64,000 bases of DNA from Atractiella rhizophila. Lineage: Eukaryota. The first letter of the stretch is position 1; each line of letters begins with the position of its first letter. Shown one piece after another: positions 27,753-54,450 of this stretch. The translations under genes were made by a program, and so were the position numbers. The notes beneath the pieces are model-generated. The model ran no database searches. It saw nothing but the letters and a program-made list of their open reading frames with translations, and was not told the origin of the DNA. The DNA lies in assembly GCA_021432655.1 (NCBI GenBank), contig MU271318.1, positions 1 to 64,000 of the forward strand. Direction: 5' to 3'.

Positions 27753-29260
27753 ATCTTTCATGTCACTTTATCCGGCTAGGCTTACCATCCGCTCCTCACA
27801 CTGGCAAAGCACCATTCGAACCGCAATCCGTGCACCGCGAATGGAGCCATTCCCCTCCTCTCCTTCCGAGTCCACAACCCACGCCTCTTCATCACCTCAC
27901 ATCCCGACCCCTTGCAAACCACTCTCGCCTGCACAAGTACAACCACTTTCGCCTCCTCACCAAGCACCACCCCTCACAACACTTTATCTCCACCTCTGCC
28001 CTCTCCGCCTCTGCTGTCGCCTTCACGTAGCACACCTAATGTACCACGCAGGCTCCTAGCCCGCGTTCGAAATGGACCCACTCGGCTTGCACAAGAGTGA
28101 GAGAGCATGAACTCTCCCCACTTCCCGCTCCTTCCTCCTTTCGCTTCATCCCCATTGAATGGCTGGAGCAGTCCTGCGACAGGCTGGTTCGGAGGACGCG
28201 TCAGAGGGAGGACGGAGACGGAGATGGGTTGATCGAAGTGGTTCGCAGCCTAGAGGGAGAGGAGCTGGAGGAGCTGATGATTTGTTTTACGGCGTATGGC
28301 TTTTTGAGGAGGAGAAGGAAGAGCACAGTAGGGGTAGGGAGCACTGGAGAGGCGTCAAAAACGCACCCACTACCGACCGCATGTCTGCTCTTCCTCCTGC
28401 AGGGCATCACGTAACCATGCAACAGGTTCTCTGGCAGGGATTTGGCGTGGCACTGGCGACCTCCATCCTCTCAACTGTCCTCTACATTGCAAATCCTGTC
28501 CCTCCGCTCTGCTCCCCCGCTCGTTCCGCTTCGCCTGCGCCATTCAGCTCCTATTTTCCTCGCTGGCTCACCGGCACCACTTGGGATAGGCACTTCCCCA
28601 TTCTCTAATATCTTCGTTAGGGGTGATGACGGGAAGGATTACGGAATGGGAGAGAAGGAGGAGAATGGATGGAAAGCTGGAGGAGAGATGGAGATGGAGA
28701 ACTGATGTCTTGGAAATAGAAGGAAGATGGGCATCACGCTGGAAAGAACTCGCGATGTGGTGTAACAAGGGAGAGAGCGGGTGCTGCTTCAGGGCTCTTA
28801 GAGACCTGATATGACGAAACTAGGACTGAGTGGATCGCTGGTTCCCTGGCATGGGGATATGGAACCGGTCGAGTTTCACGAATCGACTTCGTCGTGCGTC
28901 TTCCATGCGATGCGAGGGAGCACGACTAGGGATGCTGACATTGTTGAAGCTCTGGTGCCTCATCCAAAGGGGACGATCGCCACCTTCTTAGCTGCCCATC
29001 AAATATTCAGATCTGTGGCGAGGTGAGGGTATCGAACGACGAAACCACAGTTGTGCGCCTTCCTTTCCTAAGACAGTGGGGAGAATTGATATTGGCGATT
29101 GAATTCGGGCATTGGCCAAATTGGCCATCCGAAGGCAATTCGAAAGATGCACGCCGTTTCCTTCGTGCTCCCCTTCAAGCTTCGAGCGCATGCCGTATGT
29201 CAACGCACAATACGTTCCCATGTGCCAGCCTCACCAGAACGAAGGACTTGCCTGCCACAC
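27753..29260 (+). pseudogene. 3' part of a degenerate gene of unknown family (5' part at 54182 onward; paralog at 59400-61100)
   Basis: SALPPAGHHV...WLTGTTWDRHFP...GWKAGGEMEME and PKGTIATFL align by eye with SALSPAGHRV...RLAGTVCEKGLP...SWRAGAGVEME and QRGTTLTFL on the minus strand at 59.5-60.4 kb. Confidence 0.65.
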
Positions 29261-29289
29261 TAAGTAAGTACCTGGTAATTGCCGCTCAC

Positions 29290-31400
29290 TATCGAACCCT
29301 TGTATACATATTTGAATATATACTTGACTGAACGAATTGAGATACAGATCTCAGTGTTGATATGAGCTAGAAACTTCCTCAGGACCCAAGCATTAAAAGG
29401 CACTACCCATCGATTATCATATATAAACTCTTGGCCACGTATCATCTTGCGAAAAACCCGACCATCGTTACGCCGCCGATAGGTAGGGTAGCCACTATCA
29501 TTGATTCTCGTTTCCTCAACAAAAGGCTTGGGATACCCTTTGCCACACTTCCCATTGACCATGCAAGGTGCATCTGGATTATGTTCACCACATGGGCCAT
29601 GTAGCATATGCTTGGTGACTATTTCAAATAATACAGGATCCTTGTCCAGATCAGGCAGCTCTGCTTGAATTACTTGATCAATAGTTGCCTGGTCCCTGAT
29701 AAGATCTTCAGGATGAAGAATCAACAGGATGTGCGCATGTGGTAGACCCCTCTTCTGAAATTTAATGACCCAGACATATCCGATAACCCTTCCAAAGATC
29801 TGTCGTACCACTAAATCCTTGATGTACTCCAGAGCCTTCAGTCAAAAAAGCCTTGAAACCAAATCTGGCCGATCCTCTGGTTTTTGTCTGGTAGGAGGGT
29901 CCTTTGGCACCAACTATACCCATTGCATCCTGGAACAGCTGATTCATTGACCGTGGACCGCCAGTGAAACTTGATGGTAATATAGTCCGCCTCCCGATAT
30001 CTTCTAAAGAATAGCCTTCTGTAAGGGCATCTGTAAGACCTTGATACACCTCAGCTTGAAGAATAGACTGATTGAACTGCAGATAGCGGAGTCGATTGCC
30101 TCAATTTGAGCATAAGCATCGACTACCAATTCTTGCAGTAGCCGACCACCGTAGAGAGGGAGTGAGAATATATCATTTCGTTGATGCAACATGTAAGAAT
30201 AGAACTCCATTTGGCTGACACGTTGTCGAACCCCGGAATTATCAACTTGCATGCCGTCATCATTCAAGTGCTCTCGCTCGCAAGGAGGAAGATCGGCAGG
30301 CAGGTCTCGATACGGAATCTGTGGATGCCATCCTTGGTCCCCATATGGAAATAGAAGAGGAAAACGAAGTGGAAGGTAATTTGAGTTGAGCTCATTGACA
30401 CGCTGTAAGTTGCTACCGGTTGTGGTTGCCCTGAGCTGGATGACAATATCTCTGGCCACTCCATATTCTTCTCTGTTACCATCTCCTACCATCACTACAG
30501 CAACTTCACCGGCTACAGGAATGTTGTAGCATCTTGGGTCCCTATCTCGTGGAGCGACTGTGCGAAGATGTAATGTGGTAGTGGGATCCTGTTCCATTCT
30601 TTCTTTCACAAATTTGTAGATCCTGGGATATGGGTTGACACGGAAGAGCAGAGCCTGAAGGTCCTCAAGCATACTACAATTCAGTGAGACTGAAGTGTTG
30701 CCAACTCTTCGTTCAGTCTGTACAGCTGAATCTGTAATGTAGACCTGTGCAAATGTTTCACACCCTTCTTGTTGTGGTAAAAGAGTACCAATAAGGTGGC
30801 ATAGCTCTCCCTGAATTTCGAAGGAGTAGGGACCATGTCCAGGAATTGATACCTGGCGGACGCCTAAGGATGTAAAGGCAAAAGCATTATTGAATCCCCT
30901 GATATGCTCTCGAAATGTCTTTGATTCTATAATGATTGTTCCTCTCAGATATGTAATATGCAAAAAATTGAATAGAAATACTTACCTGTTGTATTGTGAT
31001 ATGTAAAAAGCTTTCGTAGCTCTTCAGGTGGAGGCGGGGGAACAGGTAGCAGCACCTTGCCATGGAGACAGCACAATGCAACCTTTGGATTTCATTGTGG
31101 GCTGTTAACGATCTTCTCTTCCATCCAATGAAAGGCTTTGCAATGTGTACAAAGTAATCCCCAAGTAGAGAGGTGGTGTGCCTTAAGATCCATATCAGAT
31201 GAGTAGTTGAATGCAGGATAGTGACGTTGCCTCATTTCGTCTCGCAACAATGGGACTAATGCCCTATCCTCATCACTGTCCGCACCGTCAGGATCAGGAG
31301 AGGATGGGTGTGATTGGGCTTCTTCTTCACTGTACTCCTCAGGGGAGGGTGAACGCTGTCTCTGATGTCGTCGAGCTGGTCGTGACGATATAGACAATGA
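29290..31400 (-). mobile_element. Helitron Rep (HUH endonuclease) remnant; helicase absent
   Basis: CTHCKAFHW, FNNAFAFTSLG, FAQVYITD, FPLLFPYGDQGWH, VVDAYAQIE, ILPSSFTGGPR, IKFQKRGLPHAH, MLHGPCG, YPTYRRR, KYIFKYVYKG. Truncated after KG. The segment normally carrying the FxTFTCNP motif appears deleted. Confidence 0.93.
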
Positions 31401-34400
31401 AGAGCTTCGACAGCGCCGCTGACGTGGAGCCTTAGTTGATCTTGTCTCATGTTGAGGTGGAGTAGGTGGAGTAGGATTGAAACGTGCAGGGTGTCGCCTC
31501 TCTCTTATAGGCCGACCTTGGTGTAGTGGTGCCTCCTGCTGCAGACATTGAGGTCGTTTGGATCGGCGCTCTCAATTTCTTATTTGATTTCTCTGAATTG
31601 CACGTGGCATGAGAGTGTAGCTTGCTGCACATAATAAAATGATATAAGTGAAGAATATATAAGCCAGAGTCCACACACCTATGCTCTTTTGGTTGATTTG
31701 ATTTGATGGTAAAGGGCTCAGGGATACTATGGTAGACTGTTAGGAAGTATATTTGTGGTGAAAGACACTGCATGAATGCTTGCTCACTTTCCCTCATAGT
31801 TGGCAAACAACAGTTTTTGGCGCACAACATGAGAAATCTCAGAAAGCGCTGAAGAAATTGCGTGCACGCAGTTTGCACGCAACGGGTTTTGGCGGTGACA
31901 AAATGTTATATGACTGAACCCAGACCAGCACAAAGTACTCTAGACTTGACTTTCAACCATACACCAACTCCACCACAGGACAAACCTGGATACTTCATGA
32001 CCTTACTTTGTGTATGTAACGCAAATTTGCTCAAAGTGCCAAGAAGTCACCTGACTCAGTGACTGAAACACTTTGTTTCGTCTTTCAAATGGGCTTTGCT
32101 ATATACGCTTCAAAGGGCGCCGACACGCGTATTCTGATGGTATGCTCAGATTACTGGCAGGGTTGTTGTGGGTGGTGAGAGAAGGGCTCAAAAGTACATG
32201 CGTGAGTCATGCTAACAACCCGTTGTTCTTTATATATAAGGACAATTTGGTTCTCAGAAATAGGCGTTCATCCAGCGGATGCATTAAGAATGACAGTTTT
32301 CATCCACACTTGTTCATGAGAATGGCTGTTCAAATTGGGGGGTAGTTTCATAGTTTCATCCATCCCCACAGAAATGACCTTATCTATTAGAAATGACCGA
32401 TTATTTGATCCAACGAATTTTTCGAATGGCCTAAATCACAGTTGTCAATGTTCGTGCATCTCGTATGCGACATGAGAGAAGTTGGGTTTAAACTTTCCGC
32501 TTCCAAGCAGCCTTCTTACTCAGCCTCATGCATTCCACGGTGAGACGTCTCACGTCATGACAACATTTGTTACAAGGACTTCTTGCATGCTCTCCTCCGG
32601 CACGCCGACACCGTAACGGTCATTATAGATGCCAACTTTATCCCTTGTCACACTTTTTCACCCCTCTGCTATCATCAGACAAAGGGTCCTTTACTACCTG
32701 TGACAAATCCTCTCCCCTGAATCCCTACAAAAATTTTCTGATTTTTAGGGAATATTTGTATGTTTCTCTTCCCTTTGACCAGGTCAACAAGAGTGCAGGC
32801 TGTCCTGTACAACGTTCTCAAGAAAACTGTACAAATCAAGTCCCAGGGCGAAGAAACCAAAAGTGGATACGCATAATGGGCGCTCGCTTTCGCCTACAGC
32901 AGCTTCCCACGACACAACTGCGTCTTCCAAATATGATGTCAAGAATCACGTTAGCGGAAAGGCAGTTGCATGTAGTCTGCAAGTTGACAAAGTAGGGTTT
33001 AGGTCGAAATCGAAGCCCGAATGCACTTTGGGATCAGTGCCAGCAATTTGCTCGATCGCCCAAGGAATAGAGCATTTCCCTCTAGATGACGTTGTCCGTC
33101 TAACCGCCGATATTCTGCGAGGTGAATTTTTGACTGGTCCGCCAAAGTGCCTCCTCTCGCCTCAACCCCCTCTCCCCACTGGTAGTTATTTGTCGGTCTT
33201 GAAATTCTCAAATTTTTTTGCATGCCCATATTAAAGACCATACTTAAGTATTTGTCATCTACTCGCTAAGAGATTATGAAACGACACATTCGCATGACCT
33301 CCTCTCGGATGGCGTTCTGCATCATTTCATCGATGTCTCCAGCAGGAAGTGCTTAAATGCCTTTCTCGATGGATGTGGTGTTGGATTTTGCAGTCTAGTA
33401 TCATGCCACTCAGTGGCAAAGTTCTTTAGTTTTCTGGAATGTTCTACTACTTTCCAGTTGCCACTGCTGTAAGCTATATAAACACATAGAATTCCATTTC
33501 CTGGTGCTCATGCAAACGCATGAGCTCAGCCAAACGTAACCAAGTCGTACTTAGCTTCGCTCCTCAGCCCGTTGATTTCCAACATGTTGTGAAAGGTCGC
33601 AAAACAAGGAGAAATGTTTGCATTTCCTTTTCTCGGCTATGGACACAGATGGCCCGGTTCTTAGAAGGATCCGAAAAGGTCAAGCAGTGAAAGGGCAGAG
33701 GAAGAATCTCAAAGCTTTGGTAAGCCAACATTTGAGGATGTGCCAGCATTCACCCTGAGACTTCACCCTGAGACTTCCACACTTAAAAGCAGATGATGTG
33801 TTGAGTTTGAGGGCAAGGGGAGATTGAGGGGATTTGAGAAGGAACTAGCTTGGGAGACAGTGACAAGACGAGTGACCTAAACCCCACAGAATTGCATCAA
33901 TAGACGTCAGTTGGTCTGTAGATACTACCTACCAAAGGAACAGCAGTATGAGGCAATGGGAAGGGAGGGGAAAGCGATAGAAGAGGAGACCCAGTTGATA
34001 TGACAAAGTGAGGCAACCCACTGATATCAAACAGATATTTCTCCCACAATAACTCCTCCCATGCTTAGCTTTATAGCGCTTCTCAGACCTAAGACCAACC
34101 CCTATCAACCCTGGTACCACTTCCCCTAACTCTCGATTGGGACCGCTCCAGCTCCAGTTGAACGAAAAAGTCGTGAAATTCCCCGAAAGGTCCGCACGCA
34201 CATTTCGCTCCAACACAAGCCCCCTCGTTCGTGATGCCAAGTTTACAAAACACAGCCAAATCAGAGCTGCCATTTCTGTGCTTGTTGACCACGAACCTCT
34301 GCTTGTGAGACTGTCAACGACCTGTGTCCTGAGTGGAGAATTGAACGCGCCTTGAAGAAATCATTGTTAGGAAAAGTCATTTCGAATATTGTGCGATTGA

Positions 34401-34952
34401 GGCCATTTTATAAAGTCGGAGAGCGCGGAAAGTGAGTTTCAATTATCTCTTGAAGGTCAGTACTTTCTTTGATGTTGTGCAGGAAATGCTGCGTGTAGAA
34501 GTAAGAGAGACGGGGTTGTGTGGTTGATTTTGGACTACTTCAGGAGAGGATTGAGATGTACATCTACATGTTCCATCCACCATCTCAATCCTCATCCACA
34601 TGTTCTTCCATCCACTGCAATGGTGGACGTACGTGGCAGAGCATGGGTAAGGGATAGACGCATAGCCGTGCTCTCCGTGAAGCTGCATCTGTGGGATCGG
34701 CAAAAATAGCTTGTGACGTGCTCGCGAACGCGATTTCCAATTGACCATCATAAGTCTTTGTCTCCTTGCTCTTGACGAAGCTACCACGCCGACCCGTGAT
34801 TCATTTAGATTGCATCTTATAACCCATAGAAGCGCTGATGAAATTGGTCTTAGAAACCCATTTGACTTGTAGAAACCATTCTTCTTCCTTCAGCCACCTG
34901 CCGCCTTGTGCTTCAACAACCGCATCGCAATCCAATTTCTCACTTTACCTAC

Positions 34953-37900
34953 ATGTCTAAAACTCCGGTCAAGGTTTTTAAAGTCCCCGAAAATATCAAG
35001 AAGGCGAATCCGTTGGGATTGCGGGTCCTTTGCATCGACAATGGCGGCATCCGCTACTTTTCCGCTCCATACATGCTTGAACAGATAACCCTTCAAACCA
35101 GTCACCTTCTCAAAGTGCCAGATAATGAAGATCTCCGTCCCTGCGATATTTTTGATCTAATCTGTGGGACTTCCACTGGTGGATGGATCGCGCTTATGCT
35201 TGGCAGGCTGGGAATGACCGTTCGACAATGCATTGCAGCGTACGAAGAGATTATGGAGAACGTGTTTTTGAATAACGTCCCAAGCCCCAGTGACGGTAAC
35301 GCTTAGCAAAAAAACTCGAGGAAACTTTGACCGCTATCTTCCAGCGACATACGGATTCTTCCCAAGACTCTGCGAAGTCTCTTCCGATGAAAGATGCTTA
35401 TTTGCAGGACAGATGTAGAACGTTCGTGGTTTCTACCTACGAGTCCAACGTCGTTATTTCCACAGAGATGCGTACATACGATATTCTTGGTGCTGGATCC
35501 TCGCCGTTTATACCTGCCTCCGCTTATACGGTCTGGGAAGCTGCAAGGGCGACTGCCGCTGCACCTCTCTTCTTCCCTCCCATCAACATGGATTCCACCG
35601 GGTACGTTTCGTTATTTCGCGACAATCCTACGGCAATAGCTGTCGAAGAGACCAAGCGAATTTGGGGGCAGAGTAGTGAGATTGCTTGCCTTGTGTCTCT
35701 CGGCTCTGGAGTTGCACCTGCTGTCAAGTTAGATAATGTCGAGCGAGCTTTGAAGGCGATAGCTGCGGACTGCTCGAGGGTTGCGAACGACATGAAGATG
35801 AAGATGCAGCGACGTCAGATGGGCCACTGCTACCATCGTTTCTCGGTTGATTCGTTCGGAGATTTCAGGTGGGAAGAATGGGAACGAAAGAATGAAGCTG
35901 TGGGATGCACGAAGGCTTACATGGATGCGCTGTGTTATGAAGTGCTCCCTGCTGCTCAATCGCTAGTGAAAGGTAAGTTCCTCCTGGTTGTAATTGCATG
36001 CGCATGCTCACTTTCTACTTGTCAGCTTGCATCGATCGTATTGCAGTGTACAAGAAGATTCCACTACCTCCTCTTGGTGGTTGTTACGGAGGAGGAGAGG
36101 AAGTTCAGAAAGCGATCAACTTCATTGTCAGCGATCACAGACACCTTGCCATCATCGGCGGCGCTGGTAACGGCAAATCTACGGTCGCACTAGAAGTCCT
36201 GCATGCAGACAAGATCAGGAGAGAGTTCACGACTGTGAGAGATGGAAAGGAAGAAGACTTTCGTTTTTGGGGCCGATGTGACCCTTTCTCCGACTTCTCC
36301 TCGCTCTCCGCCTACCTCTGCAATGACGTTTTTGGATTGGCTCGCCAACCTGGAGAAAACGACCTTGCCGCGGTAGCGAGATATTTCCAAGAGCACAAAT
36401 GCATCCTCTTCTTGGATAATTTCGAGACCCCCGCACGGTCGGACAAGAATACGCTGCAACCATTCTTCCAATCCCTTCTTTCCAGAAACTGCTCCTCTGG
36501 TTCCATACTCGTCGTAGTACACCGCGGCCATCAGGTGGAACGGGTGAACTCGACAGGAGTAAGATTTCAAGAGCTAGTAATTGGCGGCTTGAGTGACGGT
36601 GCCGTACTGGACATGTTCAACGATATGTACACTGCTGGGAGGAGAGATTGCTCGAGTCGGGAACAGGTAGTGAAAACCATCGTCAACATCCTGGACCATC
36701 ATGCTTTGTCTATCAAGCTCTTCATTCTTCGCGCCAACGCGGAATCAACCAAGCCGCTTGCATTTTTGGTTGAGGAGTGGGCGGCAAAGAAGACCACCCT
36801 CTTATGGAACGAAGATAGCGAGGAGACACTCACTCTCGCCACTTCGATATCTTTTTCGCTCGATTCACCTCTTCTCAGAAAAAATGAAAACCTCAGCACT
36901 TTTATCCTTGCCTTATTATCGTGGACTCCTGACGGTCTCCTGGCAGACGACATTATCGCTATCGGGGATAACAGCTGTCCTCATCAATCGAAACAGTCTT
37001 CCGTGCTCGTTACCTCCATCTTAACCGTCGGGCTTGCTGAAGATACCATGGATGTCCTGACAAACTCGAAACGTTTGTGCATGCTGGCACCAATTCGCGA
37101 ACATATCAATCGCTTGGCCCTAGGTCCCATTCTGCCTTTCAAAGACACTGCTTTATCACTTCAGCCGTTGACTAAAGTTCTCATAGAGAAGGCTTGTACA
37201 AATGTGCGACGATTCGAAGATGCAGCTGAGCGGATCGGACTGCTATTGTTTCGCAACGATTATCCAAACCTTGAATATGTCCTTCTAGCTGCCTTTAACA
37301 CCTGGATGATCCGACAACAGCATACATCTTCCTAGCAGAAACCTGGAGTTTTCTGCATCTTCAAGGCCTTCCCTCCATGGCACTGTTTCAATCCGTTTTA
37401 TTCTACACAAGATCCATCTCTGTTACATCAATGACAGCTGCATTGACGCTGGGTCTTGGATATGCATTTCGACGGAAGGGAACCTACAAGAGGCGCTGAT
37501 ACGGTTCGAGGAGGCGAAGGAGCTGTATATGGTTGTGGAAGAACAGCGGGGCCTTGCCTACTGCATTTGCGGCATGGGGATGATCGAGCAGGGTCGTGGG
37601 CGGAACAAGAAAGCGTTGAAAAGGTTCGAAGAGGCGAAGGAGCTGTATGTGCTGGTGGAAGATCAGGGCGGCCTTGCTGACTGCATTCGCGGCATGGGGA
37701 TGACCGAGCGGGATCGCGGGCGGAACGAGGAAGCATTGAAACGGTTTGAGGAGGCGAAGGAGCTGTACATGATTGTGAAAAATCAGCGGGGCCTTGCCCA
37801 CTGCATTTCCAGCATTGGGGAGATCGAGCAGGGTTGTGCGCAGAATGAGGAAGCGTTGGGATGGTTCGAAGAGGCGAAGGAGCTGTATGTGGTTGTGGAA

Positions 37901-38371
37901 GATGTGGCAGGTCAACTTAACTGCCTTGCCAACATGGCTTCCGTTTATGAGGAAGACCACCAGGTCAATAAAGCGATTGATCTGCTTTGGGAAATGATCA
38001 ATTTGAGCATGACGGTTGGAGGCTATTATGAAGCTCATAGCAGAGGGAAGATGGGCCGACTGCTCTTCAGGCTATCAATGCACTCAGAGGCCAGGAAGGA
38101 AACTATGCATGCCCGTCAGCTTTATGCGGAATGCAGTGCAGCTTCAGACATAACCAATTGCGACAAGTTGTTGGAGGCAATCGCTGGGACAGAAAAGGGA
38201 TCGGATGTGAGGGAAGGACCCCTAGGTGTCACAGAACAGGTATCCAGCGTGAGGGAGGGTTGTGCATCTCCTCCAGGGTTGGCATCCAAAGGATGGGAAG
38301 AAGGCTTCGAAACTGCGAGGCATGATTCGGTGGTTCCGGTACATTTCACCTCACAGTCTGGTACAAACTAA
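34953..38371 (+). CDS. Fungal NLR: patatin-like domain, NB-ARC/STAND NTPase and TPR repeats (three 1-nt frameshifts, possibly assembly errors; ~1120 aa if repaired)
   Basis: Patatin IDNGGIR, GTSTGG, ARATAAAPLFF. Intron 35973-36025. Walker A GGAGNGKST, Walker B ILFLDNFE, MLAPIRE, then 40-aa TPRs. Frames join if one A is added at each of ~35298, ~37297 and ~37488. Confidence 0.88.
37490..37960 (+). repeat. Four highly similar 120-bp TPR-coding repeats
   Basis: GGTT(C/T)GA(G/A)GAGGCGAAGGAGCTGTA at 37503, 37623, 37743 and 37863, encoding FEEAKELY. Confidence 0.92.
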
Positions 38372-38964
38372 TCTTCTGTTGCAGTTGATAGATACGTGAG
38401 CGCCTCACTGTTCTATGTCTCTTTCAATCAGCGGAGAGGCTCAGCGCTGCAAAGTAGAAAAGCCTTAGTTGGTCTTAGATTCGGTGCGTAAGGAGCAATA
38501 TATCAAGTTATATTCCACCTGCTCTGCAGGTGTTTTCTCAGGGCTTTTCAGTGGAATCTTTTTGGTATATGTTGACTTGAACAATGCAACTTGCACTTTT
38601 TGTTTAGCCACCAGAAGGCCGCTGGCTAAAAGTGGTTTTGTGCTTCAGTTTTTGAGAACACAAGTGTGTCAGAGGCCTTTGTCCCTCAGGTCCCCCAACC
38701 CACTCGCAAGGGGCATGGCCCCCTACTGTGACTCTGGTGAGGGTTCGAGCCCAGTTGAAATGCATTTTTTACCCCCTTCGGAATAAAATTTCCTCGCAGC
38801 TTCAGAAAGGCACAAGCATGTGCAGTAAGATGATGTAATTCATTTTGTCTCAATGGGCCTGGTGAGGGAGGTATAAAGGCTCAAAAGTGTGTTTTATGAT
38901 TCATGCCAAGAACGGATGGCTTTTAGAGGTAAGGATTTACACAGGACCCGCAATAATTTGAAGA

Positions 38965-39236
38965 TGACAAATTTATTAGCTCTCGCTACCAATTGACAAA
39001 TTTATTAGCGCTGCGAAGTGCGAGATAACAATGAGTATATGTTGCATTTAGTATGTAAGGAAACTACATTACCTGCGAAGTGCGAGATAACAATGAGTAT
39101 AAGTCTCGCACTTGCAGGTTTACAAGCTTTTATAACAGAGAGATCCCTGTGGCAAAAGATTGGCCACAGTTCCAGAAAGTGCTCCAAGGAAAAGAAACGC
39201 GCAAGTGGCGAAAGGAGGAGGCGCACGATTCTGTCA
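38965..39236 (-). mobile_element. Collapsed LTR element: one ~243-bp LTR, PBS and a duplicated LTR end
   Basis: TGACA...TGTCA ends flanked by GAAGA (38960-64, 39237-41). Minus-strand TATAAAAG and AATAAA. PBS-like TGGTAGCGAGAGC at 38991-38979. Confidence 0.55.
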
Positions 39237-39829
39237 GAAGATGAGGAAGTGTGGGAGAAGAGCCGTAGAGGAAGAGAATGGCAGCCCATTTACCCCTCGG
39301 AGATCTGCTAGTTCAACAACCTATGTGGCATTACACTTGGTCACGGAAGAAACCTCGTAGCGGAGTTCGCAAAAGAAGGCATCCCCTCAGACGCTGTGCA
39401 ACCCCTTTCCTAACTTACAAGTGATGACTCGCCATGACTCCCATTCGGATAAGTGATTTGCTTCTGTATGGGAGTCATGTTTTTGAACGCGTTTTGCGAA
39501 GGCCGAATCCCACACGCTCCCATTTCTTTTCTCTATTCTCCCGTCATTCCTTCCGTTCGAGGCTTGTAGTTAGACGGGAAAAGATGTCCTCTCACTGGCT
39601 TCTCGCCCCGTAGCCCACCGCATCCTCTCCAACCTCTCGTCGCTTCCCGCTACTCCAAGCCAAGCAATCTTCTTCGCCTTCTAAGCGAATTTATCGCACC
39701 CTCTCCTGCTTTCGCACCGGCCGCCGCCCAACGTAACTGACTTTCTTTTGAGCGTCACCCCTCTGTGGACGGCCCCCTTCTCTCCCCTTGCCTTAGTTAA
39801 TCTACTCGGAATAATAGTAGGCCAGACAT

Positions 39830-42800: not shown

Positions 42801-43200
42801 AAGAGGAGAGGAAAGTCTAAGAAGAACGAAGAGAACTCGGATGCTCAGGAAGTTGCGTCACTGAGGGGGGATGTCGAGAAACTTAGACCGTTGCTCGACA
42901 AGCAGGATATGATGGCACAGGTGGTTAAGGCCAAAAAAATGGCAAAAGAGAACCATTGGAATGCAGAGCACTGGAAGAAAATGTTACAAAACCAAGTGAG
43001 TGTCCGTATTTCCTAGCTAGTTTCTCAACAGAGAATAGGAGTATGATGTAGGAGTTATGATTATGAAATTTAATTCCATCGACAAAAGGGTATTGGAGCT
43101 TCTTTGACTACTCAAAGGGGGCCAGGACGATCAGGAACATGTTGCTAGTACTAGTGGAAGTGGCAGAGGGAGTGGAGGTAACAGTGCAGGAACACGATAG
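39830..43200 (+). pseudogene. Degenerate coding region of unknown identity; best-preserved ORFs are 41597-42538 and 42318-43016
   Basis: Long ORF fragments interspersed with stops. The sequence looks TG/CA-rich and CG-poor by eye. No family recognised. Confidence 0.3.
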
Positions 43201-44655
43201 GGGCTTCGACTGTTAAGACCACGATAATATGGCACATTCAGTGTTTGAGGAGAAAGAGGGATTAGGGAGGGAACAGGGAGATGGCGATGGGAGTATCACT
43301 GCGTAGATCAGGGGTAAAGACTGTGGTGGAATCAGATCATTTCCATTATGCTCCTGTATAACTGAGCCGTGAATGGAATGCGACTGGAACCTTACTAAAG
43401 CTGCACTAACCGTGCACTGTTTTACGCGCTAGATTGGAACTACATTGCACTGACAGTGCGCTAAAGGCACTGAATATTCGATGTACACATGAGCACTAAC
43501 TGCAACACTAACAGCGCACCAGACGCACAAAACTGGCACTGCTGCAGAGCCAAATAGAAGAGATAAGACAGGACTTACCTTCTTCTCTTTAGCAGCATCG
43601 ATAGTTCTAGCACCAGTGCCAGTCTTTAGGGTTTCTTCTAATCCACAGAGCAGCAGAGAACCAGTCCATCTTCACAGTCAAGCACCACAGCACCCCCATC
43701 CGCTTCAAGTTCAGACTCATCAGAGACTCCAATCATCCATACATGACAACGTCAACGATTCAACCGACTACCTCCTCACCCTCCCTCACCATCAGCTGCT
43801 TCAAATAGAGCAGTTCACAAAGATGAAGGAGGACCAATGGACACAGAGGAGCAAAAGCCCATCGCTCAAAGCTACGAACTGTTGCAGCAACCAACAATGA
43901 GAGCCACAAAGGAGCAAGGAGCAAGAGCAATCAGGAGATGGGCAAGAGGAAAACTCTTCCGCCTTACCATAGAGATAGGGAAGGATCGGAGTGGCCCCAT
44001 GGATGCATACAAGATTGCGAGAGCAATCATCGACAAAGGAGCAAGACGAACTTTGATGAGCAGAGACTTCACTTGAAACATCAGTATTATCTCCCCCCTC
44101 TCACACCATCAGATAGCTCACTAATCATTGGGAATGGATCAGTCACGATCTCTATTGGAAGAATATCGACATGGTCAGCGGTTCGATACGGTCCTCACCT
44201 TAAGAACACAGAGTTTGAGATCTTAGATGCTGGACGGGCCTTCAATATCCTCCCCAGCAAAAGGGCGGAAAGAGCAAATGGAAGTTATCCATTTTTACAA
44301 ATGGGATGTCATTTGTTTTGCACCGCCGTTCATGTGGAACATGTTGCCGAAAAAAGTGCCTTTTGTGGTAAGTTTCTTCCGCAAGGAGTTGAAGAAGGGA
44401 ACGAATTTGAAAACCGAAATTGCAAACGCGCTGTGTAGGGTCAGGCTCCATGTCATGATTTCGACCAACGACAAAGCTGTTCAAATCCAAGGCTTGAATG
44501 GAAAGCTTACGCTGAGGGTAAGAAAGAAACGAACAAGGTTAGTGCTCTTAAAAGCTTTTGTAGGGCACGAGAAGTTGAGCCAACGCATAGGATTTCACTT
44601 ATTTGTTGTGAAGACCGAGAAGCTCAATCAAACCGCTTTATCCTCGCTCAGTATC

Positions 44656-45143
44656 ATGTCGCAGCCACCTCCTGTGGATTCGTTTTCTACGCTCAATGGA
44701 CATCTCGGCTCCTCCTTGCCCGCTGCAGATCCTGTCACTCCGATGTATGCGTTACAGTCCGAAAACAGCGAGCTCAAGAGTGAAAACGCTGCCCTTAAGT
44801 TGTCCAGCTCAAGGCCGACAATGAATCGCTCAGGGTCGAAGTCGTCCACTTTAGCGGGAGAATGGAGAACCTAGAAAGGCAATTGCAGCTAGTGTTGCAA
44901 AGAGCCGGTGTTGATTCTGAAGGTGCGGATCAAGATGTTGGCGAGCAAACTGGGTCTGGAAGCTACCGGGGTTTATCGAGTCACCATTCTCAGCTGGGGT
45001 CACATCATGGCTCTCATGCGTCATCATTGGTGCCAGCAGAGCCTGTCCCAGAATCCCGCGATGCAACCCCAGGGACGACAATCCAGCAGATCATCCTCAG
45101 AAGTGTGGGGAAGTATCCTTTGGCCAAACCCAGAGATGTGTAA
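44656..45143 (+). CDS. Small coiled-coil hypothetical protein (one 1-nt frameshift at ~44797)
   Basis: LQSENSELKSENAALK continues as VVQLKADNESLRVEV...MENLERQLQL if one A is restored. Confidence 0.45.
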
Positions 45144-45706
45144 ATTCCTGCACCTGCATGCTTCCCCTTTCTCCTGCTATTTACACTAAAATAAGGAAGA
45201 CTGACCTGTTTTTTCTAAACGTTGAGCAACTAGCATTAATACTGCACGGAACCGTGAGCGCCTCCAGTTTTAGCTAACCATTGTCCAAGCGGTGATTGGA
45301 CCTACTCTTTCTGTCCCAATACTGTGTATTGAAGCGCAAAACCATTTTTGGCTTGCTGCCCTGTAGTTTTGGAGAACATTTGTGCCCAAAAGCCAGTTCA
45401 AAACTGATCCACGACTTTCTGACTTCTATCACTGATCATTGATCCACTGTTTGTCTGCCATTTAGTGTCCAACGTCCGCACAAGGCCCCCAGCGAATTCA
45501 TCCAACATCGGCATGATCTGAAACTACTAAGTCCCATCTCATCAGTTATTTCTTCTCCAGCATCGATTTGCAGACATCCAGCGGAGTCTATCAAAATGGC
45601 ACAAGTTTCGGCGGGGAGGATAGAATAGGGGCATGATCTCTCTTTTCTTCTTCTCATCGCATCTAACATAAACCTTGGGCTGTGGTCTGTCATCTATTCT
45701 CAGGAA

Positions 45707-47550
45707 ATGACTGAGCAGCGACCATCAATCCCACTTGCAAATCAGGGGCCAGGCTCAAGCGCCACAGCCTTGCTCATGGATGATCGCCAACAAAACTTCA
45801 TTTCGCACTCAACCAGTATTCAAACTCCCACCAACACATCCGAACGTTCGACTTCAGTCCCGTTCGCGACAGATGCCATGATTGTGGACTTTCCGCAATC
45901 CAACTACCACGAACCCCCTTCATTTGTTCCTTCTCCTTTCACATCGGGCAAGCACTCATTGGTCGCGCATGAAGATCCTCGGCAAACGCTCCCACAACTG
46001 GTACCATCATTCGGGCATGCAGAAAAAGTCTTCGACAGTCCAATTAATCTCCCAGGACCTAATCCAATTTGGGGCTACAATAGATCTGTTGTGCCTCATT
46101 TTCAAGACGGATTTCTGGTACCTCTTCAAAGTCCTGCGCGTCCTCGCTTCTCATATCTTCCAGGCGACTATCCGAAGGCTCCGAGCAGTGTGCACCTACT
46201 CACCAGCTCTCGAATGGAAGACTCGTACATGCACTCGGGAAGGGAGAGAGTGTGTGAGCACGACGCTGAATTCCCTAATAAGAGGATACGGACAGACCAT
46301 GCTCTCCCGGATTCAAATGGAATGCCTCTCGAACATTTTGCATTGCCTAAAGAGCTGCCTGACGATCTGTGGGACCTCATTTTTGGGACAGAGAGAGAGC
46401 GCGAGGCTGAATTCCGTAATAAGAGGATGCGGACGGACCATGCTCGCCCCGATTCAAACGGAATGCCTCTCGAACATTTTGCATTGCCTGCATTACCTAA
46501 AGAGCTCTGGGACCTTATTTTTGAGTACCTCCTGGCAGATCCGTTTCAAATGGTAAGTGACTGGAAGTATGGATTAGTGTGCAAGCTACGGCGGGAGCGA
46601 CTGATGGGACTATCAGCGGAACCCAGCACGGCACGAAAAAAAAGAACTATCTGAAGCCCTTCAAAGTCTTTCAACGACGTTGGTTCACAACCAAATATGG
46701 CTATTCGAACACGAACTACATTCCCCTCCATACATTGATTTCAGACATCGTCCCTTACCAGGCTGTCTCCCACCTATGTCTCGCATATCCAGCGGAAAAG
46801 GAAGAACATTTGCAATTGTTGAAGCTACCTCATCTCGAAACCATCAAGGAGTTGGAGTTGGATGGTTGGGATGAGCATACGGCCATTGATTGTTTGCTCA
46901 ACCGACGGTCCTCAAGTCTCAGGTCAATCAAATTGGTGCGATTGCACATGCCTCTATCGGAACCTTTAGCCAAGCGTGACCTCGTCGAGAAGCTTCATGT
47001 TGAATTTGGAAGCGATTTGTTCATGACTTCTCTGATGAAGGTTGGAGTTCAAACGGCATACAATGTGGATTTACGCCCGCTTGGACCAATCTCTCGGTTC
47101 TCCAATCAACAACAACTAGCGCTCCAAACCCTTGTGATATGCTATGAGGCGGACTCACCCTTTGACATTCAGGAAGTTGTTTTCCATGAACCTTTGAGGA
47201 TATCGAATGCTCAGAATTTTGTTCGGCTGAATATTGATGGAGGACATTAAAACAGCAATATCTTGCCGAAGGATTTCTTCTTACAACTTTGAAGTGCTGA
47301 GCAGCTGAAGATACTTTTTCTGTACTTTTGCCTCTTCGACTTCAGAGAGTCCCTTAACTTCATTCGAAGTTTCATGCGGGTTGAAGGCATCAAAATGCGT
47401 CTCGTGCTCTTCTATGGGGAATGGACCGAAGAGGAAGAGAAGCTTATGAAACAGATCAGGAATTTACAGTTTCTAATGAACGAAGCATGTAATCTCTTGG
47501 TTCGGACCCCTCCTCCCCTCAAAGACATTCCCAAACGACAGAGGAGGTAG
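45707..47550 (+). pseudogene. F-box/LRR-like gene with internal duplication, a frameshift and two nonsense codons
   Basis: LPKELWDLIFEYL is F-box-like. A ~46-aa unit is duplicated at 46250-46520. Frameshift in the A8 run at 46636. The frame continues past TAA 47248 and TGA 47290 to 47550. The C-terminus is homologous to 56367-58037. Confidence 0.65.
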
Positions 47551-48239
47551 TAGTTAAGCCTCGCTTTTGGAGGGCAACCTGCAAGCTGATCAGGTAATCT
47601 AGCTTTTAATGATAGCTGTGTGCGCGACAAATTTGACACCAAACTAATAACAGTAGTTAAGGGTTCAACCCTGCCTCTGACAGGAACCAGATCCCTGTCT
47701 GAATCTTGCCTCCTGGTTCCCAGGGTTAGGGTTAGGGTTGAAGGTGGGACCAACATCAACAGGAGAAGGCAGAACCATCAGAGTCCAACAAAGTGGGACT
47801 CCAGATTGAACCAAAGACGAAACACTCACAGTGTAGCTTCTCCCTTCTTGATAAGTTCCTCTCAGGCCCTTCCAACAGTAAATAACTAGGAGCAGGAGGG
47901 AGAAGAGCTATAGTAGGGTGTGAGATGAGGGGTTCCACCAGGAGACAAGACTGGCTAGATCCTGTCTCACTAAGGCTTCTTCAGTTTCTGGTGATGGTGG
48001 GGGCTCTTTGGGAGGTGCTCTAAGTGGTTTATAAGTGAAGGAATTGATGGGGATTGCCCATCACATGCAGAATTGTCATCCTATGCTCCGTGTGCTTGCT
48101 CTGCATGATCATGGCAGCCATGAAGGGTCCTGAGGCTATTTATTCTGGTCCTTTTCGTTGGCAAAGTGCTGTGGGATCACTATTATTTTGCATCACATCA
48201 GTAGCTGTCCTGGTTTTAAGTAGATGATCCCATGATATA

Positions 48240-48452
48240 TGTGGTTCTGCTCATCCCTGGTGGTAAGCACCTAGCATGACTATTATCCGAGACTCCTACC
48301 TGCTCATCCCTGGTGGTAAGCACCTAGCATGACTATTATCCGAGACTCCTACCTGCTCATCCCTGGTGGTAAGCACCTAGGGAGAGCAGGTCATTGACCG
48401 TTCGTACGTACACCCGTGTGCGGTGATCGTACCACACTGGATACTTCCAACA
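48240..48452 (-). repeat. Copia 3' LTR (213 bp); PPT at 48453-48461
   Basis: TG...CA ends. Reverse complement of 27540-27752. Confidence 0.92.
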
Positions 48453-48672
48453 CCCCTCCTCGATCGCCGCACACCGCTCCTCCACCTTTATGCCCCTCCT
48501 CTTTCCGCCTCTCCATGCCCTATCCCGTTTCAGTCCACTCAATCCCCGTGTTTGTCTCGATGGTCCCCCCGTGCACATCAGCGTTCTAATGGTTACCCGA
48601 TAATAGAATTGGACAGACCGTTTCCACGGGTCTTACATCTTCAATAGAACGCCCGCTCGTATCCCCGTCCCC

Positions 48673-51600
48673 TCACAGCAGTCCTAACGACGAGCAGAAA
48701 CGGTAATGCGGCTCAGCACCCAACCCTTTTGTGAACACGTCCGCTGACATCTCCGAAGTAGGGACCCACTTCATCACAATTTCCTTGCCCTGAACCCTTT
48801 CTCTCGTGTAGTGATAATGCACGCCGATGTGCTTCGTTCGATTGTGGTTTGCCGGATGTTTCGCGAGGATTATTGCGCTCTGATTGTCACCCCGTATTAT
48901 CATTGGGAATCTCTGTTCAAATCCAAGTGTCCTCAGGATCTCTCTCAACCATACCGCCTCCCTCGCAGCCAAAGAGAGTGCCATGTATTCAGCTTCTGTA
49001 GACGAGATTGCTACCGATTTCTGAGCAGTCGAAAAACAAGAGACCATCCCGCCCGCCAGATTGAAATGGCAACCAGATATCGACCGTCTACTGTCGATGT
49101 CAGCCGCATGATCCGCATCGCGCCAGCCCACCAGTTCATTCGATGCACCCTTCCCATCCCATCCCAAAACCCTTCCGGTTGTCCCTTTCAAATATCGGTA
49201 AATCCTCGTTACTGCCTTCCAATGTCCCATCCCCGGGTTTACCATATACCTACTCACTCGATTTACGGCATATAGAATATCTGGCCGCGTGTTGACTGCC
49301 AGATACATCAAGGCACCAACTGCCTCCAAGAACGGTATCCCTCCCATTTCCGCCTGCTCCCGTTCAGTCTTCGGTGACATATCGTTTGTCAACTTGTCCT
49401 TCGGATCGCAAGGTGTGCTGACAACAGAATAGTCGTGAAAACCGTATTTCGCAATACATCTCTTGATGTAGTCGATCTGATCCATCGTTATACGCCGATT
49501 CTCGCGATCCTGGGTAATCCGCATCCCAAGGTACTCTCCCACTTCGCCATGTGTAACTCTCTTGAAGACCGCCACCATTTTCTTCATCAAGCTGTCTCGC
49601 AAATCCGTCGACGTCGATGCAACGAGTCCATCATCCACGTGTAAGAGTACTATTACCAGTCCCCTATGATCCTGTCTAACGTACATTCCGTGATCAGCCT
49701 GTGATTTCACGAATCCTTCCTCCTTCATCATCGTGCTGTATTCTTCGTTCCAACTCTTCCCCGCCTGTCGCAACCCGTAGAGACTCTTCTTTACTCGGTA
49801 AACCCAGTCAGGATGTTCAGGATCAACAAGGCCCGGTGGCTGCTGGACATATATCTCTTCCTCTAATTCTCCATGTAAGAATGCATTTCCAACGTCGAAC
49901 TGTCCCAGGGTCCATCCGTTTATGGCGGCAAGCGCAAGGACAACTCTGATGGTGGACATGCGTACCGTCGGAGCGTAGGTTTCCGTAAATCTCGACCCTC
50001 CACCTGCTTATTTCCAAGGGCAACTAGTCGCGCCTTATATTTCAGAAATTCGCCCCCCAACTTCCTCTTCTTGCTTAACACCCACTTCAGTGGAATAGGA
50101 ACGACTCTGTCCGGTTTCGGCTGTAGCGGACCCAAAACCCCCATCCCTGTGATTTGTCCCCACTCCCCTCCGCATGCTCCAGTCCACCCCTCCCTTTCTT
50201 CGCCCATCATTGCCTTCGAAAACGTAGGTGTATCGTCATTCCCGTCCCAATTTCCGTCCACCGCGAATGCCCCACCTCCAACGTTCCCGTCCGTTTGTGC
50301 CTCATCAAAAATCGCTGATGCCTGGACCAGATTTTCAACGACCGTCCTTGCCTCCCGCACTTTCTTCGACTCCTGTTCTCTGATCCCAGGCCTCAGGACA
50401 ACATATGCACTTGGTAAGTCCTGTATACCCGAGTTCATCTTCTTATAATCTCGTCGTAGGGTCTTCCTAGATGATCGGCGAACATCTGGTCTAGGTGTGG
50501 TTGCACGTCCCATATCCCCTGCCGTATTGTCGTGTTCCTCACGTATTCTGTCCCCCACAGGTGCTACCTCAGTCTGGTCTTCCGGAAGGCCCCTCATACC
50601 GTGCGCGAAATCATGGACACCCCAATTCCTCCCCCAGAATTCTTCTATCCCAGCCTCTAAAGCCGCTCTAGCCTCCTCGCGTCTCATTCCCTTCCTTTCT
50701 CGATAGAAGACCCCTTCAAACCATTCGACATCAGCCGATTCAAATACTACCCTCTTCTCCGCATCCCACAATCTCCATCCTGCCGCGTCTTCACAATATC
50801 CCAGCATGTATCCTTCCCTTCCCCTAGGTTGAAGCTTCGATTCTTGACGCTCCTTTGGGATGGTAGCAACTCCCAATGTCCCAAAAGCAACAAGGTGATC
50901 CATGGACGGTAATTTTCCGTATAACGCCTCGTATGGGCTCCTGGCATCCGTGAGTGCCTTATGTGGTACCCTCAAGTATAGATAAACTGATGTTGCCATA
51001 GCGTCCCCCCAGAAACTGACAGGAAAACCGCTCTGTAGTAATAACGCTCTGGTCATGTTCAGCAATGTCAACCACGGATGCTCCATCATGCCCATATGGT
51101 TGTGTTTATAGGCAATCGTTGTCTCATGCTGAATTCCTTCTGTCCTTGTAAAGGTTGCCAGAGTCATTCCCATGTACTCTGCTGCCCTATCGGTTCGTAT
51201 CTTCTTAATTTAACTCCATGTTCCCGTTCAAATCGGCTGATCCATTCCTTTAGCACGATGGGTGCGGACACCTTCGAACGAAGCGGAATCCACCATATGG
51301 AACGTGTGCTCTCCTCCAGAATGCCCATGCCATAACGTTCCCCGTTCCTCATCCCAACTCGAGCAGGTCCCCATATGTCACTCAAAATTCTTTCACCCAG
51401 AACGCTCTCCGACATCTGCTGCTTCGGCCTGTTTGTCTTCGTAGTCGACTTAGACATCGCACACGTCAAGCACTTTGGAATCCCTTCATTTGATTTCGAT
51501 TTCGTTAACGTCACATTTCCAAGTTTCCCCTTTTGCAACATATCCTTTATCTTTCCAAAACTCAGATGTCCCAGTCGTTCATGCAGGGTATGCAATTCAA

Positions 51601-52393
51601 CTGATTTCGCAATCGAGGACGTAGACGAAAAGCAGACATGAGCGTCGAACGTTGTGTGAGATGGGATGTAACTTGCCTTTACGGCGACGTTCTTTTCCCC
51701 AATAACCGCAAATCCTATCGATCTCCCATCGTCGATCCCATAGTATATCGTTTCGCGGTCGTTCGTGAATCGCATCCCATTGCGCATAAGCTGCATGGCA
51801 GAGATAAGATTGATCCCCAATTGTGGTAGATAGAGGACATCTTCGAAGACGACAATGAACCTGGTTCCATCCGTGTTCTCCATGACTGCATGGATTTCTC
51901 CAACAATCTTCGTGGTACCCGAACTATCAAAGACTCCTCGCAGGACGACCGGTTCCTCTATTTCTCGAACATTGTGAAGTAAGTTGAAGGAGGAAACCAT
52001 GTGATATGTGGCACCCGTGTCATGTATCATCTTCAATGTTGCCAGCGGAGTTCGCGGTGGAAGAATGTCCTCATGCCAATCAATTACTCGGAACTTCGAA
52101 TCCAGAATGGGTCCATCACCTCTTGCCTTCCCAGCAAAGGCTCCGTTCCATACACACCACACCCCATCCATTCCCGAAGGCATCTCCCAGTTCTGTACCC
52201 CAAGAGCGCCTCCCATGACATCTCTGTCATATTCTTCATATTCTATTCCTTCAGACGAATATCTGCATTCTTGGTTGAAGGCTGGATGTTCGGGAGGGAG
52301 AGGATTGTCTTTGCCATAACCAGGGACATAGATCGGGAAGGTGGATAATGCAGCAGGATTGTCAGGAAGGTGTCGCCCCCGCTGTTCAAACCC
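48673..52393 (-). CDS. pol: Copia pol (protease, integrase, RT, RNase H) with 1-nt frameshifts at ~51210 and ~49988
   Basis: HDTGATYHM, LHERLGH...CLTC, SDIWGP, IRTDRAAEY (after repair), YKARLVALG, FDVGNAFLHG, LHVDD, ADVFTK. Confidence 0.93.
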
Positions 52394-53905
52394 CTACTGT
52401 ACATAGGCAGGAACCCAAGCAAGGTCGTTAGGTCCGAACACGATTGATCCATCTCCAGTTCCATCAGCTCTCCCATCGTCAATGTGCACGTTAACGGCTC
52501 CCACAATGTTCTTTGTTCCGTCATCGTCCGCCGTCGTATTCAATCGAGAGACAGCCAGGCCACTGACGTTCCACTGAGTGATACCCGTATAATATCTCCC
52601 TACTTCTGCCGCTCTTGCTCTCATTCGGGTGTTGACATCCGCCCCCTTCAGTCTACATGTTTCTCCACGATGCCCCTCCTGAAAACAGACATGACATCTC
52701 CCATTCAACATCAGCTTTCCGCCAGCTGTAAATCCACCATTCCAAGCTCTTCCAGGAATCTCTTGCAATTGATCAACACGTGTTGGATTTCCTCCATTCC
52801 TCAGAGGTAGTGCATATATCATCCTCTCGGACGATAGGGGAACGTTTCGGTATGGTCTTAGTGTGGGCATAAGCTGTTGTGACTTCGGACGGAATACACG
52901 TTGAGGTGGCGTCATTGTCGTTGAACCTCTCCTTGTCGGCGTGCCTGGAATGAAGTTATGCGTCCTGTTAGCAGTAGGTGTACGTGAGCTCTGGACGGAA
53001 TATGCGCTGGAGGGTTTGTGAGTCGGATAATCGAGGTATGTCCCGTTGGTAGGAGGTTGTCCCATCTCGATCCTCTTTAAGTCCATGTCCCACTGCTTGA
53101 TACAGAAATCCAGGATTTCGTCTAACATGGACTCAAACTTCTTATCCCTTAACGTCGGACTGGTGTAATCCCTCGCCCATTTCGGATCATTCTCTACCTT
53201 CTCCATCAACCCCGTCCATGGCGGCATTGATTGAGCCTTCAGGAGGTCAAGGAAGAACGAATTCAGGACTTTGTCTTCAGATCTAGCATCACTAATAGCT
53301 CGTTTCTTGGTTCGCCACTTATTCCACCATTCCTTCTGGTCTTCTCCCGCAACTTGCCTCATATTGACGAAATTGAGGAGGTCGAATATTTCCGATTGCT
53401 TCTGTAGAGCCCCGTATTGCGTCTTCAGGACATTGATCCTCTCACGACATGTCCCAAGTTTCGCCATCGAATCCCAATCACTCTCCGTCACAAGAGCCTT
53501 CAGGATAGTATTGGCAGCCGCATCATTTGAGATCCATTTCTGATAGGTGGTCATCTTAGAGGTAAACGAGGTTGCATTCTCCTTCAAACCGCCGATCGCG
53601 AAAGTAGGAAGTTCTGGTTTAGGCGTACCTCCACTCCCTTCCTCAAGAACAACCTCCCCAAAACCACTCCCTACCGCCAAGCGAATAAACTCTTCATACC
53701 AAGATTTCCAGTTCCCTGCCTCCAGCTTTCTACCACTCCAAAGACTCATCAAGTGATGCGCCATTGTCGCGACCGCCGCCTTCTCTTTCTCGTGGTCCAA
53801 GATGAGATCCAGGGTCTCACTGGATGCGTTTGATTCGGTTTCCTGCTCAGGAAAAGGGGTTGGAGCCGGCGATGGGGGCAGAGATATTAACTTGTCAACG
53901 TTCAT
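52394..53905 (-). CDS. gag: Copia gag
   Basis: 503-aa ORF after the PBS, with KLEAGNWKSW and zinc knuckle CHVCFQEGHRGETC. Confidence 0.88.
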   Translation of the reverse strand: MNVDKLISLPPSPAPTPFPEQETESNASSETLDLILDHEKEKAAVATMAHHLMSLWSGRKLEAGNWKSWYEEFIRLAVGSGFGEVVLEEGSGGTPKPELPTFAIGGLKENATSFTSKMTTYQKWISNDAAANTILKALVTESDWDSMAKLGTCRERINVLKTQYGALQKQSEIFDLLNFVNMRQVAGEDQKEWWNKWRTKKRAISDARSEDKVLNSFFLDLLKAQSMPPWTGLMEKVENDPKWARDYTSPTLRDKKFESMLDEILDFCIKQWDMDLKRIEMGQPPTNGTYLDYPTHKPSSAYSVQSSRTPTANRTHNFIPGTPTRRGSTTMTPPQRVFRPKSQQLMPTLRPYRNVPLSSERMIYALPLRNGGNPTRVDQLQEIPGRAWNGGFTAGGKLMLNGRCHVCFQEGHRGETCRLKGADVNTRMRARAAEVGRYYTGITQWNVSGLAVSRLNTTADDDGTKNIVGAVNVHIDDGRADGTGDGSIVFGPNDLAWVPAYVQ

Positions 53906-53940
53906 TCAACAGCGTTTTCGAAAAAAATTTTCCCCAACCT

Positions 53941-53953
53941 GCTCTCGCTTCCA
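53941..53953 (-). promoter_or_regulatory. Primer-binding site of the Copia element
   Basis: TGGAAGCGAGAGC directly follows the 5' LTR. It has one mismatch to the TGGTAGCGAGAGC at 38991-38979, which is initiator tRNA-Met-like (inference). Confidence 0.7.
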
Positions 53954-54181
53954 TGTGGATCTGCTCATCCCTGGTGGTAAGCACCTCGCATGACTATTAT
54001 CCGAGACTCCTACCTGCTCATCCCTGGTGGTAAGCACCTAGGGAGAGCAGGTCATTGACCGTTCGTACAGAGACTCCTACCTGCTCATCCCTGGTGGTAA
54101 GCACCTAGGGAGAGCAGGTCATTGACCGTTCGTACGTACACCCGTGTGCGGTGATCGTACCACAACTGGATACCTCCAACA
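53954..54181 (-). repeat. Copia 5' LTR (228 bp) with a different internal repeat arrangement
   Basis: TGTTGGAGG...ATCCACA. Shares the core repeat with the 3' LTRs. Confidence 0.9.
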
Positions 54182-54450
54182 AAGATGATAACGGAGTGCC
54201 GTTGAAAAGAACAGACCATACCCGAATACATCGTTTAGCACTCCCACGTTCTCGACCTCGACCTTGACTTCCCGTTGAGTGACGTAGTCGATTCTCTTTC
54301 CCGCATTCGAGTTAGCCGCTCCGTTCCCTCTTTCCCTCGATCTTCCTCCGGCTTCCATCCCTATTTCGCTCCTTCGAGCTCCTTCCCCGCATTGTACGCC
54401 TGACTCCAGCGCCGCACCGACTCTTAGGGTCATCTTCAATCGCCATTCTC
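54182..54450 (-). pseudogene. 5' part of the degenerate gene whose 3' part starts at 27753
   Basis: Minus-strand AATGCGGGA...ATCGACTACGTCACTCAA matches AATGCGGGATCGACGACGTCATTCAA of the paralog near 61035-61060. Confidence 0.55.

Follow-up and report, generated by a model that had tools for sequence, protein, structure and literature searches.

In the window analysed here, the 64,000 bp that form bases 1–64,000 of scaffold C139 of Atractiella rhizophila (an assembly of 51.5 Mb in 1,998 pieces), a 20.5-kb segment (27753–48239) that consists in good part of repeats lies between two oppositely oriented copies of a Copia long terminal repeat (LTR) retrotransposon, and is inverted in the assembly relative to its ancestral order. 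We put the probability that the inverted order is present in the organism's DNA at about 0.65–0.7, as a judgement rather than a computed value. An initial annotation of the window had proposed an inversion between inverted Copia copies; the ancestral order and the swapped target site duplication (TSD) hold and inversion remains the best reading, whereas the truncated partner and the placing of the crossover given there are not upheld. If real, this would be one more repeat-driven inversion, a kind of event that is already well known and has a textbook mechanism, in a region of fungal NOD-like receptor (NLR) and F-box paralogs, with the NLR gene left unbroken.

Exchanged target site duplications and their empty sites

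The right-hand copy (48240–54181, minus strand) is a full-length but broken element with one in-frame stop and two frameshifts. It comprises a 5' LTR (53954–54181), a primer site (about 53941–53953) and a 3' LTR (48240–48452), all on the minus strand. Its Pfam domains (Pol_BBD, gag_pre-integrs, SH3_retrovirus and RVT_2) follow the Copia order. Membership of Ty1/Copia is indicated by LTRs with TG...CA ends, a primer-binding site, a polypurine tract and a 5-bp TSD, and by the domain order protease–integrase–reverse transcriptase (RT), with an RT of the RVT_2 type. The left-hand copy is represented in true orientation by its 3' 1.5 kb only (26231–27752, plus strand; RT end with an RVT_2 match, and polypurine tract), which ends in a 213-bp 3' LTR (27540–27752, plus strand). 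This stretch is 99.1% identical to 49762–48240 on the minus strand, with 12 substitutions and 1 indel.

The three 5-mers that had been reported next to these elements (i.e. ATATA at 48235–48239, AAGAT at 54182–54186 and ATCTT at 27753–27757) are all in place, and the proposal that ATCTT is a swapped TSD proves real. ATCTT after the left-hand 3' LTR (27753–27757, plus strand) is the partner of ATCTT on the minus strand at 54182–54186. In three paralogs of the empty site that are closer than the one inside the window, both flanks are contiguous with a 5-bp overlap (C76, 88%/86% identity; C123, 79%/85%; C51, 76%/84%), and a single 5-mer stands at the join (ATCTT in C76 and C123, ACCTT in C51). 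The upstream half (54182–55552, minus strand) and the downstream half (27753–29293, plus strand) of this unit, which belongs to an F-box array, must therefore once have been joined, with ATCTT as the TSD.

TATAT forms a second TSD pair, divided between the window and scaffold C381. One member lies at 48235–48239 on the minus strand (ATATA on the plus strand) and its partner directly precedes the 5' LTR at C381:10983. The flank 47726–48239 (plus strand) is a piece of a dispersed repeat that was hit by the second Copia: in C957 and C789 it continues into sequence matching C381:10982 downward, with one TATAT at the join. Because the empty sites of both pairs carry one 5-mer each, both are true duplications, although the ancestral empty state is taken from paralogs and not from an orthologous allele. 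There are thus two integrase-made insertions, and the assembly pairs the 5' end of each with the 3' TSD of the other. A chance match of both 5-mer pairs has a probability of ∼1e-6, calculated from base composition. A 5-bp TSD is the rule for this Copia family here: the 5-mers match in seven of the eight solo-type LTRs whose two flanks are readable, as they do in the single further element assembled whole, the remaining LTR loci being element ends or having unreadable flanks and standing outside this count. The breakpoints thus combine oppositely oriented homologous copies with exchanged TSDs.

Mirrored assembly text and the second Copia copy

The left-hand copy had been described as truncated. 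Instead, 24444–26230 read backwards extends the element (corresponding to 51539→49762, 98.4%), and the 5' end is found on C381. This 1.79-kb block, from the integrase to part of the RT, is reversed but not complemented; it is an assembly error that hides the upstream part of the second copy. Two other blocks are of the same kind: 23684–24418, an extension of the left contig that mirrors a C175 paralog (95.4% over 735 bp), and C381:11086–15923, which mirrors 54010→49173 of the window (98.9%). Each of the three adjoins a 25-N gap. The gap at 24419–24443, the sole one in the window, joins 1–24418 to the element without sequence support. These 25-N gaps were presumably left by PBJelly, a long-read gap filler; our literature search found no relevant published report of a reversed-not-complemented gap-fill fault. 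The second copy is accordingly laid out over 24444–27752 and C381:10983–15923.

A Markov scan and contig depth agree with this. An order-4 Markov score is negative at 23684–24418, and a scan with it flags the mirrored blocks strongly and scattered windows elsewhere weakly. Depth and continuity were checked on Logan contigs of three runs, which apparently represent one strain or very close ones and give no independent support, two of them (X1 and X2) being one sample; depth in such contigs does not equal copy number, the stretch used for depth excluded 48239 and 54182, and contig pieces and loose ends were listed in part. Depth is zero over 23805–25706 in all three runs (bin 23805–24438 and bins 24439–25706), and one contig extends 204 letters beyond 26231 with letters that differ from the assembly text.

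The second copy is therefore probably full-length and the inverted repeat probably the whole 5.9-kb element, so that the shared homology spans the entire element rather than 1.5 kb. The crossover, which had been placed within that 1.5 kb, cannot be located to a point. Most likely C381, rather than window 1–24418, is the left neighbour of the segment. Reversed blocks beside 25-N gaps create false truncations and false neighbours, and structural claims at such places in this genome need read support.

The block 24444–26230 was considered as unique flank or as an allelic haplotype of C381, a reading that fell away when it proved to be mirrored element. No similarity was found between 25000–26230 and 47000–48239 (as high a score in 41 of 50 shuffles), C175 past its match has no hit of at least 150 bp to C381 or C139, the flank at 27753 had no match in a metagenome scan, and a tblastx comparison of the window with itself returned mostly noise.

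Probable conversion and crossover, and competing explanations

The two copies are close relatives. The C381 copy and the full element are 0.85% apart, compared with 1.8–1.9% to the copies on C111 and C5. Sites with a derived state shared by both copies number 22 as listed and 21 once one gap artefact is removed; for the clustering test, one shifted site was removed and two indel-coded sites were added, leaving 21 shared sites and 53 that differ. These 53 sites are clustered (runs test, p 0.004), and there are six identical tracts of at least 380 bp (p 0.0002); the remaining 3.0 kb, as counted by hand, diverges by ∼1.8%, which is the family background. Both copies also carry the same primer-site change and the same one-base difference near 51209.

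The LTRs are still more alike between the copies. The two 3' LTRs are identical (0 differences in 213 bp) and the two 5' LTRs show no substitution over the 160 bases that can be compared, whereas three sites separate 5' from 3' LTRs; in other elements, the two LTRs of one element diverge by 3.3% and 5.6%. Reverse transcription leaves the two LTRs of an element identical, so this pattern requires copying at the DNA level after insertion. It is apparently no simple collapse of the two loci by the assembler, because the A allele at LTR position −6 adjoins both unique flanks, the A alleles at positions 8 and −6 are rare (only these 2 of 23 LTR loci) and the position-8 A allele has about twice the single-copy depth in X1 and X2. 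The simplest cause is gene conversion between these inverted copies, which have evidently recombined in vivo. Such conversion can reset the LTR identity of neighbouring copies, and LTR dating and chimera tests mislead there.

We consider an account with two insertions, conversion and crossover to be probable as a whole. Copy A inserted into a unit of the F-box array (TSD ATCTT) and copy B independently into a dispersed repeat (TSD TATAT), 20.5 kb away and in the opposite orientation. The resulting 5.9-kb inverted repeats would later have recombined ectopically: conversion may have homogenized long tracts, the pair of 5' LTRs and the pair of 3' LTRs among them, in line with the identity pattern observed, and one event was probably resolved as a crossover that flipped 27753–48239 and swapped the TSDs. 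The resulting order would be the 54182 flank, element, 48239...27753, element and C381:10982 downward, with the second element concealed in the assembly by mirrored gap-fill text and by the unsupported scaffold join to window 1–24418.

Continuity through the second copy is consistent with this order. Twelve sites discriminate the C381 (TATAT-started) copy from the full element, and at 10 of them the mirrored text that extends the ATCTT-ended copy agrees with C381. In addition, the copy at 26231 agrees with C381 at 49328, the sole site in the overlap that separates the two 3' parts. Both results are as expected if the C381 flank, the element and 27753 form one molecule. The first also bears on the foremost alternative, that no inversion exists, each element being intact between its own TSDs after conversion without crossover, and that the assembler attached the wrong flanks across the identical final 469 bp or misoriented the segment. 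Reads anchored at 27753 should then extend into sequence of the full-element type, but the extension is of the C381 type at those 10 sites; the other whole element of the family, moreover, retains matching TSDs. This alternative appears doubtful, yet it has substantial grounds. Assembly faults are present on the spot (two mirrored blocks, a gap and a partner end on another scaffold), and the 5' LTR contains an unusual 67-bp duplication and an extra base, which may be traces of a fill junction.

Several observations weigh against a real inversion. (i) The two copies do not differ over their final 469 bp, so that a wrong join there would be invisible. (ii) At 49435, and probably also at 49431, the copy at 26231 and C381 have different states, suggesting that the assembler phased the repeat imperfectly. 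(iii) The mirrored piece is noisy: it has 11 indel columns, carries a full-element allele at one site and shows two alleles typical of other copies. (iv) Among the contig matches listed for the three runs, none spans the whole Copia element. (v) Other assembly oddities occur at this Copia family (on C636 and at C1206/C246). (vi) The chimera pattern, in which each 5' LTR equals the 3' LTR of its TSD partner, is not seen, the 5' LTRs matching each other and the 3' LTRs matching each other instead; conversion would be able to erase such a signal. (vii) Among 36 yeast haploid isolates, conversion without crossover is reported for 9 and with crossover for 1 (PMC9879454).

The mixed signals at 49435 and in the mirrored piece could also reflect mixed templates, as expected if both orientations occurred in the culture or species and the segment toggled by repeated recombination, the assembly showing one state. 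The mosaic identity of the copies suggests more than one recombination event, which fits such toggling. No direct sign of it was seen, however, and consensus error at low depth accounts equally well for the mixed alleles, so that we regard toggling as improbable.

A merger of two haplotypes, each with one insertion, into an apparent swap seems hardly credible. Near-duplicate loci do exist in the assembly (C829/C448, 97%; C143/C137, 99.8%). But the depth of an allele private to the two 3' LTRs is roughly double that of unique pieces with zero differences (183 vs 80–92, and 256 vs 104–144), which would place each element at about the copy number of the segment, with the caveat on contig depth given above, and no allelic copy was found for the parts of the segment that were searched.

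The pattern of LTR identity itself is what a one-step route would yield. Copia integrase would have used the ends of the integrated element from two sister chromatids, a 5' end and a 3' end, and inserted them together at the TATAT site, so that second copy, inversion and TSD swap would have arisen in a single event. This route predicts precisely that 5' LTRs match each other, 3' LTRs match each other and 5' differs from 3', and it fits the lesions common to both copies (primer site and near 51209) and the shared changes along their full length. For DNA transposons, PMC2775673 gives identical flanking copies and exchanged TSDs, as in the LTR pattern here, as the prediction of hybrid element insertion, vs chimeric copies under ectopic recombination. 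Hybrid insertion requires a transposase that cuts integrated ends; it is described for cut-and-paste DNA transposons, and among the papers listed by our literature search none reported it with LTR elements. The LTRs here are identical between the copies, while the interiors are 0.85% apart in clusters: conversion is needed regardless to explain the 53 clustered differences, and long-tract conversion yields the same LTR pattern by a known route. Integrase, moreover, acts on free cDNA ends, which counts against its use of integrated ones. We therefore rate this route as very unlikely; if true, it would be alternative transposition, known from DNA transposons, in an LTR retrotransposon.

Two known systems resemble the favoured account. 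In Drosophila buzzatii, two Galileo copies recombined ectopically to give inversion 2z3, for which PMC2775673 describes, as here, opposite copies at the breakpoints, exchanged TSDs and single target copies in the ancestral state. Unlike here, chimerism was demonstrated for the 2z3 copies, and 2z3 is physically mapped; unlike 2z3, the present case involves an LTR retrotransposon, has an LTR pattern in which the chimera does not show and has an orientation known from a locally faulty assembly. In Saccharomyces cerevisiae, when two inverted Ty1 elements on one arm cross over, the intervening segment is inverted (PMC9879454, Fig. 1E). The pair is likewise inverted and of Copia type, and the same source describes non-allelic conversion both with and without crossover; the Ty1 events were induced in the laboratory and checked with long reads, whereas here a past event is read from sequence.

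The interrupted array unit, NLR genes and other content

The stretch interrupted by copy A had been called a split gene collinear with a paralog at 59.4–61.1 kb. This in-window paralog (59316–61060, minus strand; ∼60% identity) does hold ATCTT at 60981–60985. Collinearity is strong for the 27753 half, 27765–29260 aligning to 60968–59316 with a score of 615 against a shuffle maximum of 47 (30 shuffles). It is weak for the 54182 half: the score of a 51-column match with 69% identity is reached in 0 of 500 shuffles of a narrow window and in 2 of 500 of a wider one, another, non-significant alignment is the best over 54182–56300 (7 of 30 shuffles), and an unanchored alignment scores 44 against a shuffle maximum of 49.

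As to the split gene, neither reading-frame constraint nor a known domain was found in the interrupted stretch. Indels in multiples of three vs paralogs amount to 2/23, 5/21, 8/48, 9/54, 6/25 and 8/73, compared with 19/31 in an F-box control, and none of 11 open reading frames (ORFs) reaches the Pfam cut-off. A coding test based on substitution spacing failed on the F-box control and was not used. The stretch is best called the spacer of a tandem F-box array unit; it might conceivably be a many-intron gene or a pseudogene. The adjacent F-box ORF (56367–58058, minus strand; 563 aa; F-box-like E 3e-4, below cut-off) has many paralogs in tandem arrays on several scaffolds. A unit of ∼6–7 kb with one F-box ORF is repeated in tandem, at 70–88% identity, on C51, C76, C88, C123, C43, C46, C554 and others, a large F-box expansion whose spacer is conserved and apparently non-coding.

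A patatin-NACHT-TPR NLR-like gene (34866–38371, plus strand; ORFs with Pfam Patatin, NACHT and TPR_12) lies within the inverted segment, as had been noted, ∼7 kb and ∼10 kb from the breakpoints. Fungal NLRs of this type occur in clusters (PMC12258605) and share the domain order of the gene here, which neither breakpoint touches. The initial annotation had further argued that undoing the flip would bring the NLR, F-box and other paralog pairs into the same orientation. This argument carries no weight: (i) a third NLR paralog (C139:67.4–69.3 kb), on the plus strand, would come to lie opposite after un-flipping; (ii) the NLR paralog at 10.6–12.0 kb lies beyond the gap whose join lacks sequence support; and (iii) the second 'F-box' matches weakly (E 6e-6; 27% over 115 aa). 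The last is a distant F-box-like sequence at 45629–47493 (plus strand), with a tblastn match at 47191–47493 and a DNA match at 45630–45726 (E 8e-5).

The Patatin/NACHT paralog left of the gap (10645–11958, minus strand) is not shown to neighbour the segment. Its NACHT match ends early, and a CxC1/CxC2 (KDZ-transposon) ORF (9495–10226) stands directly beyond the paralog as delimited at 10645–11974, perhaps an NLR cut by a transposon. Elsewhere in the left contig, terpene synthase and fungal protein kinase ORFs are found (13293–13937 and 17401–19343), and 19446–23683 is a 92% duplicate of a WD40-gene region (C175:34506–38792), of which contig depth suggests about three further copies. On C381, an NLR with a long run of ∼120-bp TPR repeats follows just after the gap (15949–17713), its join to the left part of C381 being unsupported.

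Within the inverted segment, a multi-copy Helitron-like insertion occupies 29297–32046 (minus strand), its right end unmapped; Helitron_like_N is matched in an ORF at 29263–29841, many matches start at 29297, and depth is high.

LTR length in the Copia family steps by a 53-bp internal unit (107–109, 159–161 and 213 bp). The 67-bp duplication in the 5' LTR at 53954–54181 is distinct from this unit and absent from every other copy, and is either real or a fill artefact. The solo-type LTR at C636:287–446 has unmatched flanks (CCTCC / TGTAG), and CCTCC likewise stands after the 3' LTRs on C143 and C137; it is possibly another inter-element recombinant or a mis-join. The solo LTR at C1206:2647–2806 and the full-element 3' end at C246:69–228 have a common downstream flank (1.5 kb, 100%), and represent either one insertion with a solo and a full allele or the result of assembly collapse. 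Finally, tandem repeats occur at 15859–16659 and 46246–46523, with periods of ∼160 bp and ∼140 bp and units that are 70–85% alike.

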